38,594 bases of DNA from Escherichia phage phi467: the sequence record LN997803. One strand, given 5' to 3'. Below, piece by piece: positions 21,201-27,200 of the stretch (position 1 is the first letter of the stretch; each line of letters starts with the position of its first letter). The position numbers are program-made.

Positions 21201-24200
21201 TGCCTATTGGCATCTCGCTTCGCTCACCTCGTTCCTGAGACAGAGGAATCGTTGCCTGCAATTTTTCTATAGTTCTCTGCGTCCGCTGACGGCCTTTGGC
21301 AAACCGAATCAGCTTGTGTTTGATGTAGTTACTTACTTCTGGGCTTATTTCCATCGGGAAACTGCTCAACCCATCAGGCCATTCACCGAATTTCTCCCTG
21401 AAAGTGTGAGCACACCATCCATCACTGACTGGACGCCCCAGCGAAGCACGCTGGCGCTGATAAAATTTGATCTGACTCCACCAGGACTGTTTCTCTGCCT
21501 TCGTCGACTGATGCTGATTTTTACCCAGCTTATTAAGTTTGCGGCTAGTGTCAGTATCAACGTCTTCACCTCGCAGCGGCTTGTGTCCACATTTCGGGCA
21601 AACATAGACGCCAGCTGGCTTCATGTAGTGGCATTGAGGGCATTCATGTGGCAGTTTTTCGGCCCGTTCCTCAACTGCGCGGCGCGCGCTTTCCTCCATG
21701 CCATCAGACTTACCGGGAAGATCGTCGTACTCGATTGAATCCGGATAACCCAAACGGTGCACGGTGCCGCTGTGATCGAAGATAAGGCAGGACGCTTTAC
21801 CCGGTGCGGTGCGCAGCCCACGCCCGAGTGCCTGCAACCAGCGAATTTCGCTTTTTGTTGGCCTGGCGTAGATGATGCAACGAACGTCACTATCGAATCC
21901 GGCTACCAGAACGCCCACACTAACGATGATTTTCGTTGCACCGGTTTCAAAGCGGTGAATGATGGTCTGGCGCTCATCTACCGGAGTGTCGGCGGTCATT
22001 ACCTCAGCGTTAACACCCGCCAGGTTAAACTGGATTGTCAGATAATTGGCGTGAGCTACGTTGACGCAGAAAGCGATGGTAGGTAGATCCCGACCATTCT
22101 CCAGCCAGTTCTGTACGATGTCGCCCACCAGCGTAGAGCCGCACATGATTTCAGCCAGCTGTGTTTCGTTGTAATCGCGGCCGTACTCAAGCGAAGATGT
22201 GGTTTTAACACCTTTCAGATCCGGCTTAGTTGGCGCGTAAAATTCGTATTTACTCAGATCGCCACGCTGGATTAACTCGCCGATGGTGGTCGGCTTAATC
22301 AGTCGGTCATAGTATTTGCCCAGGAACGGAGAAAACGGAGTACCCGACAGGCCAATCACCTTTACGCCTTTGCCGCGCAGACGTTCGATATCCTTCAGGA
22401 TGCGTTTTTTACGCAGGTGCGCTTCGTCGATAATCAGCAGATCGATATTTTCAGGAAAAACACGACGAATAAGCGTGTCAGCGCTGGCAATCTGAATTTT
22501 CCGGTCCGGATCGTAGTTCGGGTGATCCGCCCAGATATAACCGATTTCATCTCCAGGTAAACCATACTGCACGAACCGATTAGCCGTCTGACCAATCAGG
22601 ATGGTGTACGGAACACAGAACAGAACACGCATACCACGGCTGACAAAACCAGCAACTATGAAGGCTGCCAGACCCGTTTTACCGCTACCTGTTGGCGAGT
22701 AAACCATGAAGGTGTCGTTTGCCTTCCAGTCACGGCGCAACATGTTTAGCGCTCGCTCCTGTGCAAAATTCGGCGTGATTGTCAGCTGCATTGTGCTGTC
22801 CCCGCAGTGATGAGATAATAATTTTGTGATGTGGTTTTCATGGATTCCTCCTCACATGGCTGGTGGTCTCCCCAAAGGCTGCCAGCCCCTTTCCGAATCA
22901 ACTCACTTAAATTTCGTCGCACGAATAACGTCAATTCCGTTCTCGCTATATCGAAGAGGGTGCTTACCATCCCTGAGCAGGACAAAGCCTGACATCCCCT
23001 CAGGTAGCTGAGCCAGCTTCATCAACGAACGGTTGCGGGGAGACTTCTTATCGACCTCAATGGCACACTGCTGGCCGTCTGATGATGTAACCAGGCAATC
23101 AATAAACCCTTTACGACCACCGCTAATGCTGATGCTGAAATTGCGTTGCAGATGGTATCCCTGAGACTTGATTTTTTTCTGCATCACATAATCGAAAACG
23201 ACTTTGTCATCGGAGCGAATGAATTGCTCTTCCAGGAGAGTGATTAAATTTTGCTTCAGGTCTTCACTCATACTTTTTTATCCATCTTGTACTAGCTTTC
23301 TGGTACAACCGTTTTTTCAGGGGTATCCCCCTTTAGATCGAGATCTACCTAACCTATGTACCCGTCTGTTGGAAAAGCCTGTTCCAGTGCTTCGCACTAA
23401 CACACGGGCACTCCTCCCCCTCCCCTCCTCTCATTGAATTTTGTGCGTACTCTTTAACTAGTACAAAAATGCAATGAGATTTGGGATTCAGCCACCGGAC
23501 ACCTTTAAGCCCGGTACCAATCAGGAGCGCGATTGCGTTCCTGCCAGGGGCGGCTGAGTTGTATACCCCTGTAAAGCTCTGCCCTGATTTCTCACAAACA
23601 AGCGGAGCCTTGTGTTTGCTTCGTGCCTTGCTCTGTTCTCCTTGCGGAATGAAACAGGCTCAGCGTCAAAAGTGATTTCGTATACCTCCGCATATTTCAG
23701 GGCGACCTTCCGTCTCAGTGACGGAGGCAGCCCCTGTAACTGCTGCTGAATCCACTCTTCGTCTGCCTGGCAGTGCCTAGATGGCATCTCTGTCTGAACG
23801 TAATTCTGGGACATACAAGCCCTTCATCATTCGTTTTTCATAACTGCCGCATTTGTGGCTGTGTGACTTCTACGTAACAAATCAGGAATTGCATCTTCAG
23901 GATGGGGATAAAGATCTGGTCTTAACCCATGAGGAGTAACTTTCCATTCCACAACTTCACATACACGCAAGACGAAACGAGCAGGAATTGTTCTTTTTGA
24001 AAACCATTGGTTCACAGCTTGCGGCGTAACGCCTAGATTTCGCGCTATGGCATTTTGTGCAATTAGCTCACGAAGTGCGTCGTAATCATTTCCTTTCATC
24101 GCAACCCACCAATCTAAACTTTATAAATTCAAGATTACATCAAGTTTAAATTAACATGCAAGTCCACAAAAGATCGAATACACTAAAATCAAGTAAAAAT

Positions 24201-27200
24201 TTATCGAAACCAAGTAACCAGCAAGGATTAACAATGAAAAACTTAAAGAGCACTGAAAATCGAATTACAAAGCTGCTACAGGAGAAAGGCTGGAGCCAAG
24301 CAGAGCTGGCCCGAAAATTAGGTGTCAGCGCACAGTCCGTACAGTACTGGACAACAGGAAAAACATTTCCAAGGGGAAACCGGCTTGCCCAGTTATCCGA
24401 AATAAGTGGTTATCCGCAATCGTGGTTTTTAGGAGAAATCACGTCACGGCAGTTCTCTTCAAAGGAAAAACATCAAGCAAGAACTGACAGTGTGGTCTTT
24501 AACGTGCTCGATGTTGAGTTTAGTTGCGGCGATGGAACACATGTCCGTGGGGACTTTATCGATGTAGTTCGCTCAATCGAGCTTGATCCTGAATATGCCC
24601 GTCGCCTTGTTGGCAATAGAGCATTTCAAAACATAGAGATTGGTAACGCAAGAGGAGATAGTATGGCTCCAACAATAGCCCCAGGAGATCTTCTTTTTCT
24701 CGATAAAACAGTGAATTACTTTGATGGTGATGGCATTTATGCTTTTTGCTTTGATGGTGAATGCTACGTCAAAAGATTACAAAAGATAGGAAGTAAAATC
24801 ATGGTGTTATCTGATAACCCAAATTACCAATCCTGGAGCATTGAAAAAGATGCTCTTGAGCTGCTTTATATCCAATCGAAGGTAATCTCATCTGTTCCAT
24901 TCAATATAAATAGATTTGGTTAATTATTGATTATTAAAGAAAAATTTACAAATCAAGTAAAAGAGACGCAGAAATCAATTTTTTCTTGACAACTCCATCA
25001 ATCAAGATCTAACATCACACCATCAATTTTAACTTGATTTATTGTTAATTTTAAATTGATGGTGATTCAATGAAAGATCTGACAACCGCTGAGATATCGA
25101 ACTTAAACCACTTCGAAAAAGAATCCTTTGCATTAAATATTGCAAATCTGGTAGGTGCTGCTCGTACTTTCCATTTAATTGATGGTGATCGCTCTAAAGA
25201 ATTGGGGTTTGAAGTCATGGAGTTTGTTCATGAATACGCCCTGTCTGCTACTTATCCATTACATAATCACATAATCAACAAACAACCAAATAAAATCCGC
25301 ACCCAACGCGAAGCCTGCGGCTTAACAACCGCCGAACTCGCCAGGCTGCTCGATCTCGATGAAGAAATTATCATCCAGTGGGAAAGCGGAGAGTACGAAC
25401 CAACCATCAGCATGCTTATCCCTCTGGCTAATGTTCTTGGCTGTGATCCAATGTTGTTATTGACTGATGCTTATAAACAAAATCAGGAGGAAGCATAAGA
25501 TGAAAATGTTCAAAGGCCTTACCAACGAACCGGAGACAGCTTTTCATCACATTGCCGTACTGCTTGAAGCGGGGGTAATCATTTCGGCTTCCGGTGATGA
25601 AGAATGTGATGAACTTTCGGATGATATCTTTTTACTGGCACAACAATACGCCAGAAGCGCATGCGATGCATTTAAGGAGCAAAGAACATGATAACTCCAT
25701 TAAATATTCTTGAGGAAGTGGCGGCACAAATAAAAGAGAATACATCAATGCTTGAATTTATATTTAAGAATTCGCCCGACCAAGGAGAGACAGACGATTA
25801 TTTATGCTGTCTCATTCGCTCCATGAATAAGACCTGTGAAATGGCTTACGAGTATATAGAAACACTACGCAACGAATAAAGAACACTCAGTAAAAAATCA
25901 CACATAAAAACATGACGGCCTCTGGTCGTGGATTTCCACAACCAGAAAATAATGGTGATGCATGAAAAATAGAAACGCTTATAAAACCGCATTATTAATG
26001 GCTAATGCAGGATACTGGTCAGTTGCAATACTGTTTCTCAGAAAAGCATACGGGAAATAACAAATGGCATGTACAACCATTTATAAAGATCGTCGCCGCA
26101 TGGTAACAGCGGCACTCCGGCGGATGCAACGTAAAACAGGTAGTAATCTGCTCGTCGTTGACCTCCCGGACGGAGAAATAACAACGATAGAAATAACTGA
26201 ACAGTTCATGAACCAGTTGTTATTACGATTTGAGGGTCTTACCCGTGTTGAATATGGACGGACGAAAGGAGAAGCAACAATCCGTACCGCATACCAGAAT
26301 GCCATCGGTATTAATCAACACACGGAATATCTCACTGAATCAGGGAAACTGATAGTGGACGGCCTTTTAAAAGAGGTTGTTGACTACGTAAAAGAGAAAT
26401 ATATCAGTGGAGGAATTAACTGATGTCTGATTTATCCCCTCTTATACACGAAAAAGTACAGATCATTATGACGATTGAAAATGGTCAGGTAATAAATACC
26501 CGTAAAGTTCACAATAACGAGATGATTGCCAGCATGGATACCTTCTTATGGATAGCAAAGAAAGCGGGATATCAGGTAATCGCTCCTGATCTGGAGGAAA
26601 TCGGTGACATTAACAGCAATACGAATTCCTGAGTGGGTGCACCTGCAGGCGGTCCGTGTTCTCCGCCAGTTCAGAGCCAGACGAATTCATCCCTGTCGTA
26701 TGCACGGCTCCGGAAACCTGAGTCTGAGGGTTAATCGCCGCTGGCGGCTGCTGTCCCGAGACGGCGGCCAGAACTGGGAAGTAATGAGCCATGAACGATA
26801 CAGCAAAGTTAAGGACCGGAAATGAACAATAAACCTTCAAACCAAAAGGAGAGTATTGATGATTAATTCAACCATTACCCCTGAACCTACATTAACAGGC
26901 ATCCGTTTGGTAATCGAATTATTGGTTATTCAACTGCGGTTCGCCAGATCGACAACGGTAACTATGACAAACGAATTCCGGACGGGCTCGATCTGATAGC
27001 TTGCATTATGGAAGGGATTGAAAGCGGCTGGTTTATGCCGTGTATTGAAAAACAAATCATCCTATGGCGCTGGCTTGTTGTCGCCGTGTTCATTGCTGAG
27101 GAGCAGGAGAAGAACGGGACTGTCGATGTTCAGAATGACAAGGGCGGCGTAGATACAGCCGTTGTATACACAGGAAAACCCGGTTCAATCAGCATTTATC

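Follow-up and report, generated by a model that had tools for sequence, protein, structure and literature searches.

Six conserved 17-bp dyads on both sides of cI as the probable operators of a lambda-style immunity switch in a Shiga toxin 2f prophage

The sequence analysed here is a 38,594-nucleotide stretch of Escherichia phage phi467 (LN997803, one strand, 5' to 3'; hereafter, the window), and our subject is the immunity region around its cI repressor gene. In this region, a cro-like gene on the minus strand and cI on the plus strand diverge across a gap of 134 bp, and a second gap of 146 bp separates the cI stop codon from a gene that starts at 25070. Both gaps carry copies of a single repeated unit, the 17-bp dyad ATCAAG-N5-CTTGAT (consensus ATCAAG-TTTAA-CTTGAT), which occurs six times: S1–S3 in the right operator region (oR), between cro and cI, and S4–S6 in the left operator region (oL), beyond cI. 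The genes and sites are listed below, where PR, PRM and PL denote the promoters of cro, cI and the early-left operon, respectively, and ranks are those of a weight matrix described further on.

23827-24099, minus strand: cro-like gene, 90 amino acids, helix-turn-helix (HTH), recognition helix GVTPQAVNQW
24108-24124: S1, ACCAATCTAAACTTTAT, the weakest of the window's matches, flanked by the candidate PR -10 and the start of cro
24139-24155: S2, ATCAAGTTTAAATTAAC, within the candidate PR spacer and abutting the candidate PRM -35
24188-24204: S3, ATCAAGTAAAAATTTAT, rank 2, containing the oR copy of a 13-mer discussed below
24234-24923, plus strand: cI repressor, 229 amino acids, HTH_3 N-domain (helix GVSAQSVQYW) and Peptidase_S24 C-domain
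24974-24990: S4, ATCAATTTTTTCTTGAC, overlapping the PL -35
25022-25038: S5, ATCAATTTTAACTTGAT, the best dyad of the window (no mismatch, rank 1), at the predicted PL start
25044-25060: S6, GTTAATTTTAAATTGAT, rank 5, found only in clades W, A and B
25070-25498, plus strand: first gene of the PL operon, a 142-amino-acid protein with a C-terminal HTH_3 domain (3.5e-11)

The cro-like protein matches YdaS_toxin (5.9e-13) and P22_Cro (6.9e-5) in Pfam and is labelled in RefSeq as a transcriptional regulator or YdaS family HTH protein. The repressor scores 7e-9 for HTH_3 and 8e-17 for Peptidase_S24. Among solved structures, its N-domain matches the 434 repressor (E 7.7e-4) and its C-domain matches chains of UmuD and LexA, and the protein is 36–41% identical to the cI/C2 repressors of HK022, Fels-1 and ST160. 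A candidate self-cleavage site, Cys98-Gly99 (FSCGDG, residues 96-101), is UmuD-like, in contrast to the Ala-Gly of lambda cI and LexA, and the candidate catalytic residues Ser143 and Lys180 are present in the sequence. The protein encoded from 25070 is neither an N-type antiterminator nor a rex product, and no rex-type open reading frame (ORF) was found between the cI stop and the 25070 gene by ORF calls and Pfam; the first-pass annotation, which had placed cro beside cI and no rex-like genes after it, was thus upheld on the gene layout. From 23800 to 25500, the window matches, at 100% identity, a prophage found in E. coli 2015C-4136CT1 and in two other genomes. The identical prophage carries stxA2f/stxB2f, a phiP27-type terminase, HK97-type head genes and a Q-like antiterminator, with an integrase situated beyond the early-left genes, and neither rex nor N is annotated in it in RefSeq. 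Because stx2f, phage structural, Q-like and integrase genes are all carried by this identical prophage, the window is a Shiga toxin 2f (Stx2f)-converting lambdoid prophage of E. coli.

A scan for ATCAA-N7-TTGAT with at most two mismatches returned six matches in the two intergenic regions, the one at 25022-25038 being perfect. The same unit was recovered by an unbiased search, in which every 6-mer dyad with a spacer of 0–9 bp was enumerated across both regions and assigned a Poisson score against the regions' own A/T-rich composition; this correction replaced raw dyad counts, which were swamped by words made of A and T only. The top dyad was TCAAGT-N3-ACTTGA (p 2.9e-9 against 81,920 tests), and those that followed (TCAATT-N3, CATCAA-N7, CAAGTT-N1 and ATCAAG-N5) are all the same 17-bp dyad in other registers. 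No other repeated dyad was enriched in either intergenic region by this composition-corrected enumeration. When a weight matrix built solely from the sites of other clades was scored on 38,578 window positions, S1–S6 took ranks 1–6, with the next match at least 5 bits below five of the six; with the orthologous position left out of the matrix, the six sites ranked 1–7, S1 moving from 6 to 7. A 17-mer between the -35 and -10 of PL (24997-25013, ATCAATCAAGATCTAAC) was rejected as an operator, being kept in no other clade. Another match, at 37498-37514 (ATTAATAATACCTTGAT, score 15.0), was the one 17-mer beyond the immunity region to resemble an operator with a score close to that of S1; mapping onto the RefSeq locus puts it inside espC and outside the prophage, and it was taken as chance.

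The conservation of the sites was followed through about 90 loci from IMG/VR and GTDB genomes with a cI 80–100% identical to that of the window, together with PhiR49_2 and several E. coli prophages, and an extra group of loci was added from a scan with the consensus 17-mer. Alignment columns were counted over ten representatives of six clades:

Clade W: cI identity 100%, window type
Clade A: cI identity 88%, PhiR49_2 and the Stx2a phage Stx2_EH1910
Clade B: cI identity 88%, L064–L077
Clade C: cI identity 83%, L085–L091
Clade D: cI identity 80%, Pseudocitrobacter and others
Clade E: L097 (cI at 7157-7831) and more than 20 further IMG/VR loci (L098, L099, L102 and others)

S1–S5 occupy the same places in all six clades, and S2 is nearly invariant. 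In oR, the invariant columns number 25 of 36 in the half-sites of S1–S3, 4 of 15 in their spacers and 14 of 83 in the rest of the intergenic sequence (Fisher p 6e-8), and in oL the half-sites of S4 and S5 have 19 of 24 invariant columns versus 9 of 82 elsewhere; A4 and A5 of the half-site are invariant. Weak sites are compensated between clades, being weak in the window and strong elsewhere, or the reverse: S1 is near-consensus in clade D (ATCAAGCTATAATTGAT) and clade C (ATAAAGTATAACTTGAT), and the strong half-site of S6 is the right one in clade W and the left one in clades A and B. S6 is absent in clades C, D and E, where S4 (ATCAAGTTTAACTTGAC) and S5 (ATCAAGTTTAACTTGAT) give the consensus. 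At S3, the half-sites are kept and the spacer is variable (TAAAA, TAAAG, TTAAT, GATTC, GTAAG or CATTG, depending on the clade). The Cro helix (T/S)PQAVNQW is identical in every clade; the cI helix reads GV(S/T)AQSVQYW in clades W and A–D and GVSTQTVVYW in clade E, and the two proteins share the pattern G-V-(S/T)-x-Q-(S/A)-V-x-x-W. Clade E, with three cI helix substitutions (STQTVVYW versus SAQSVQYW) and yet identical operators and Cro helix, lends itself, as a natural variant, to mapping the residues that read the half-site. Among IMG/VR stretches with an exact consensus 17-mer, 52 of 90 also encode a cI- or Cro-type helix peptide somewhere on the fetched stretch. The helix lies within 1.5 kb of the 17-mer in 34 of the 36 loci of enterobacterial guanine-plus-cytosine (GC) content for which the distance was measurable (plus-strand matches), the distance to the Cro helix being mostly near 1 kb, which is also its distance in the window. 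Low-GC contigs make up most of the loci that have the 17-mer and no helix peptide, and these look like chance matches.

The sites were further placed relative to predicted promoters, of which those in oR are candidates:

24986-25015, plus strand: PL, TTGACA (24986-24991), 18 bp, TAACAT (25010-25015), 10 of 12 consensus matches, predicted start at about 25022
24156-24161: shared candidate -35 of the divergent PRM (plus strand, ATGCAA) and PR (minus strand, TTGCAT), within the block ATTAACATGCAAG, which is invariant in all clades
24179-24184, plus strand: candidate PRM -10, TACACT, separated from ATGCAA by 17 bp, with the predicted start falling within S3 at about 24191

Relatives share the PL -35 without change and conserve the -10 in the forms TAAYAT, TAACCT or TATCCT. 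With the predicted start at about 25022, S4 covers the -35, S5 spans +1 to +17, and S6 follows next downstream. Four clades were scanned for promoters in oR, and ATGCAA-17-TACACT was the only plus-strand candidate whose place in the alignment stayed constant among them; its -10 is TACACT in clades W, A and B and TAAAAT in clade C. By eye, clade D has TACACT there and clade E has TAAACT. An alternative PRM, TTCAAG-18-TAACAT (24128-24157), was discarded because its -35 is not kept in clade C. S2 ends exactly at the weak candidate PRM -35, roughly the place that OR2 of lambda occupies relative to PRM. For cro, one weak candidate, TTGCAT-18-TAATCT, has S2 in its spacer and S1 just downstream, and the other, TTGATG/TAGATT, lies inside S2 and S1 and is strong in clade C (TTGATA-18-TATACT); with either candidate, S1 and S2 would occlude the predicted cro promoter, whose start is expected at about 24125 or about 24104.

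The first-pass annotation had pointed to a 13-mer shared by the two sides of cI, AAATCAAGTAAAA, as the likely oR and oL operators. The word is indeed exact at 24186-24198 and 24950-24962, both on the plus strand, and a search allowing one mismatch found three copies, every one in the two intergenic regions flanking cI, including a one-mismatch copy at 25028-25040 on the minus strand. Repeated exact 13-mers are frequent window-wide (26 words), and a shared word of at least 13 nt appeared in 0.4% of 3000 trials between composition-matched shuffles of the 134-bp and 146-bp regions. Only the oR copy belongs to one of the six sites: it consists of the left half-site of S3, ATCAAG, plus the variable spacer. 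Since this spacer differs among clades, the last five bases of the 13-mer (TAAAA) are not under the same constraint, and, with the oL copy not conserved either, the 13-mer was rejected as the operator unit. The oL copy is the following feature:

24950-24962, plus strand: oL 13-mer, confined to the window lineage, whose ATCAAG (24952-24957) is an orphan half-site some 60 bp before the predicted start of PL

Comparison with the related loci, which keep S1–S5, showed 0 of 13 invariant columns for the oL 13-mer across clades. Read as a 17-mer (24952-24968), it scores -3.2 (rank 520), and its right half is absent (GAGACG instead of CTTGAT). Moreover, ATCAAG is mutated in two of ten window-type loci (L019 and L021: CCCAAG or CTCAAG) in which S1–S6 are intact. 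Where the window has the oL 13-mer, clades A, C, D and E carry GGGCxxxGCCCG followed by a T run, an intrinsic terminator, and the sequence of clade B is unrelated. No intrinsic terminator was detected between cI and 25070 in the window, and clade B is likewise without one (24924-24973 compared with L001, L003, L085, L007 and L097); because the window lineage lacks a cI terminator, cI transcripts may read into the early-left operon in this prophage. The segment 24936-24960 is colinear with 24191-24217 of oR (P 0.003, 23 matches and three one-base gaps), a stretch made up of the right half of S3 and the window-specific bases that follow, and this colinearity suggests a small intra-region duplication confined to the window lineage. 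On the simplest reading, a small duplication or recombination would have replaced the cI terminator and left the orphan half-site behind. oR itself also carries AAATCAAGTAA and AAACCAAGTAA 21 bp apart (24186 and 24207), which likewise points to such a duplication.

A large palindrome had also been noted at the early-left start. The inverted repeat is real (CCATCAATTTTA at 25020-25031 and TAAATTGATGG at 25052-25062) and corresponds to two adjacent operators, S5 and S6, with their outer halves facing, plus CACC/GGTG flanks, of which GGTG is likely the ribosome-binding site of the 25070 ORF:

25018-25064: large inverted repeat, arms 25018-25035 and 25047-25064, 18 nt each, 89% complementary, 11 nt apart

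As RNA, 25000-25085 folds at -23.6 kcal/mol (z -5.0; none of 200 shuffles reached this stability), pairing CACC with GGUG and CAU with AUG and thereby burying the ribosome-binding site and start codon. RNA that begins at the predicted PL start, 25022, folds no better than shuffles (z -1.3), and the equivalent regions of clades A and B reach z -3.5 to -5.1. RNAalifold on 18 distinct sequences yielded a weak consensus (-5.9 kcal/mol) with compensatory changes in 0 of 17 predicted pairs, and many clade A members have GGCG, which leaves an A.C mismatch against CACC, the opposite strand being unchanged. The second arm is absent in clades C, D and E. No Rfam match rose above noise, the sole hit being a plant microRNA model (E 0.29, far below threshold). 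Two self-complementary AGATCT hexamers (25005-25010 and 25075-25080, in AAGATCTAACA and AAGATCTGACA) bracket the palindrome and start codon and lengthen the predicted hairpin of the read-through RNA, in the window lineage only. Furthermore, CACCATCAATT, allowing one mismatch, has only three copies in 38.6 kb, at 25018 (plus), 25054 (minus) and 25177 (minus), and these are confined to 170 bp. The last of them falls within the 25070-25498 ORF, at the codons Ile-Asp-Gly-Asp; it is absent from other clades and may be chance or a further orphan half-site.

We consider it likely that this region is a lambda-style immunity switch of the Stx2f prophage, in which cI, and probably Cro too, acts on the six 17-bp dyads. 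The six sites exist, cluster in the two gaps and are conserved, and the flanking genes are identified; from these observations we infer which protein binds, where the oR promoters lie and how regulation would run. A cI dimer would bind the 17-bp dyad, and the Cro-like protein, with its similar recognition helix, probably does likewise. Bound repressor at S1 and S2 would cover the core of the leftward cro promoter, S2 abutting the -35 of the weak rightward cI promoter, and at S3 it would cover the predicted start of the cI promoter, allowing autoregulation. On the other side, S4 would hold the PL -35, S5 the start site and S6 the sequence just downstream. Because the operators would cover both the cro promoter and PL, their occupation would shut off both early operons. 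The general idea of the first-pass annotation, that repressor sites on both sides of cI set the immunity specificity, is retained, although S4–S6, the true oL sites, had not been recognised there as operators.

Several points weigh against this assignment. The spacing of the sites is 31 and 49 bp in oR and 48 and 22 bp in oL versus 23–24 bp in lambda; with spacing so different, pairwise cooperativity of the lambda kind cannot be assumed. S3 scores above S1 and S2, which misfits the lambda order of occupancy if score tracked affinity. The cro promoter is ambiguous, with its two weak candidates, neither of which passed a simple consensus scan in the window. The sites of the relatives are orthologous to those of the window, so that the matrix test is not fully independent. 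The operator model also leaves unexplained why the palindrome has conserved CACC/GGTG flanks and why orphan half-sites occur at 24952 and 25178-25183. Finally, a literature text search with the operator sequences found no paper. Likewise, literature searches on Stx2f and phiP27 repressors and operators yielded nothing on these sites; Stx2f phages form a separate cluster in published surveys, which do not describe their operators (PMC8136144, PMC7366253).

The dyads might instead be bound by Cro alone, or by the 142-residue HTH protein from 25070, with cI recognising something else. Clade E speaks for such a role of Cro, since its altered cI helix coexists with unchanged operators and Cro helix, and the operators hence track Cro at least as well as cI. 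However, the two regions offer no other enriched dyad, the sites sit on PL, which the prophage repressor must silence, and lambda, 434 and P22 each have one set of operators for cI and Cro alike; both helices here have Gln-x-Val-x-x-Trp. As for the 142-residue protein, it has an acidic helix, DEEIIIQW, and an N-terminal part that lacks conservation across the clades that share the sites. Binding by either protein in place of cI is highly improbable in our view. A narrower proposal concerns the oL 13-mer, which could be a working auxiliary, fourth oL operator if repressor at the lone ATCAAG were stabilised by contact with a dimer on S4; such a site would tighten PL repression or block cI read-through in a lineage that has lost the terminator. 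An exact 13-nt identity with S3 is unlikely by chance, as the shuffles indicate, the site and S4 are 22 bp apart from centre to centre, just as S5 and S6 are, a weak S3-like 17-mer, ATTAAAGAAAAATTTAC, lies at 24933-24949 (rank 17), and clade B, also without a terminator, has ATCAAG just upstream of S4. Yet the distance in clade B differs, the site is absent in four of the five other clades, it has no second half-site and a poor matrix score, and its half-site is mutated in window-type loci whose S1–S6 are unchanged. The identity, moreover, runs into the non-conserved spacer and the flanks are colinear with oR, which fits a small duplication rather than selection for a site. We therefore regard a functional fourth operator as doubtful, and its better explanation as the duplication described above.

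The palindrome could likewise act as RNA. According to this scenario, read-through transcripts from cI would fold and hide the Shine-Dalgarno GGUG and the AUG, and transcripts started at PL, without the left arm, would be translated. The difference in stability between the two RNAs, with clades A and B alike, is consistent with this, as is the missing terminator between cI and 25070. Against it stand the weak consensus without a compensatory pair, the GGCG mismatch of clade A, the missing second arm in clades C, D and E and the empty Rfam search, and two inverted operator sites yield such a hairpin automatically. Although the palindrome folds well, we rejected a hairpin function for want of covariation and an Rfam family, and an RNA-level role appears quite unlikely; because no pair is compensated, the second arm is missing in three clades and Rfam returned nothing, the hairpin is treated as a by-product of two inverted operators. 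It is very unlikely, too, that the loss of the cI terminator and the hairpin combine into a promoter-of-origin translation switch, in which a diverged copy of the S3 region replaced the terminator and the read-through RNAs alone carry the hairpin; if true, this would be a layer on an otherwise ordinary immunity region.

Outside the immunity region, the annotation of the early-left operon includes, at about 26637-26825 (22838-23026 in locus L002), an ORF resembling toxins of the ParE family, likewise in related prophages. The stxA2f/stxB2f genes lie at about 15700-17000 (11920-13155 in L002) on the strand opposite to an adjacent hypothetical gene, and genes for the transfer RNAs tRNA-Gly and tRNA-Thr adjoin the lysis genes in this region. 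This arrangement agrees with the unusual stx-region orientation reported for the Stx2f phage phi467 (PMC7366253).

Many E. coli prophages, among them PhiR49_2 and the Stx2_EH1910 type of Stx2a phage, carry the same operators together with a cI of 80–100% identity, as do prophages of Pseudocitrobacter and of other enterobacteria. For this reason these phages are predicted to be homoimmune, a prediction that extends over clades W and A–E. Induction of Stx prophages controls Shiga toxin production, and this control starts with the repressor and its operators. The six sites with the motif ATCAAG-N5-CTTGAT provide a testable operator map for the immunity type of Stx2f phages, in what is otherwise a routine example of a textbook arrangement.

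The resemblance to lambda lies in the divergent cI and cro genes, in two sets of three partly symmetric 17-bp operators, one set in the cI-cro gap and one at the outward promoter past cI, and in a repressor with an HTH N-domain and, as read from its sequence, a LexA-like self-cleaving C-domain. In contrast to lambda, the operator sequence is unrelated and the spacing of the sites is different, there is no rexAB, the first PL gene encodes an HTH_3 protein instead of N, Cro is of the YdaS/P22-Cro type, and a single -35 hexamer serves both candidate promoters, PR and PRM. The 434 repressor is the closest solved relative of the cI N-domain; Gln34 and Ser35 here correspond to Gln29 and Ser30 of 434, and the half-site cores share CAA(G/T), as ACAAG/ACAAT in 434 and TCAAG/TCAAT here. 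The operators of 434 are ACAA-N6-TTGT, of 14 bp, whereas the dyad here is 15–17 bp and odd-centred and its first half-site base is T rather than A, and Gln28 and Gln33 of 434 are replaced by Ala33 and Tyr38. By analogy with the published 434 complexes, these helix residues may be linked to the half-site bases; clade E, with unchanged operators and three substitutions elsewhere in the helix, retains Gln34. HK022 and 933W are, like this phage, lambdoid switches with an operator specificity of their own, but their repressors are at most 36–41% identical to this cI and their operators share no sequence with ATCAAG-N5-CTTGAT. The same dyad enumeration recovered TGAACT-N3-AGTTCA sites in both regions of HK022, which we take to be its published operators, and a distinct ATGTGT dyad in Fels-1. 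The c2 region of Salmonella phage ST160, tried as a P22 comparison, is of another immunity type and gave no dyad with at least three copies. 933W has two oL sites, as do clades C, D and E. The phi467 region is a new operator specificity within a very well-known kind of switch.

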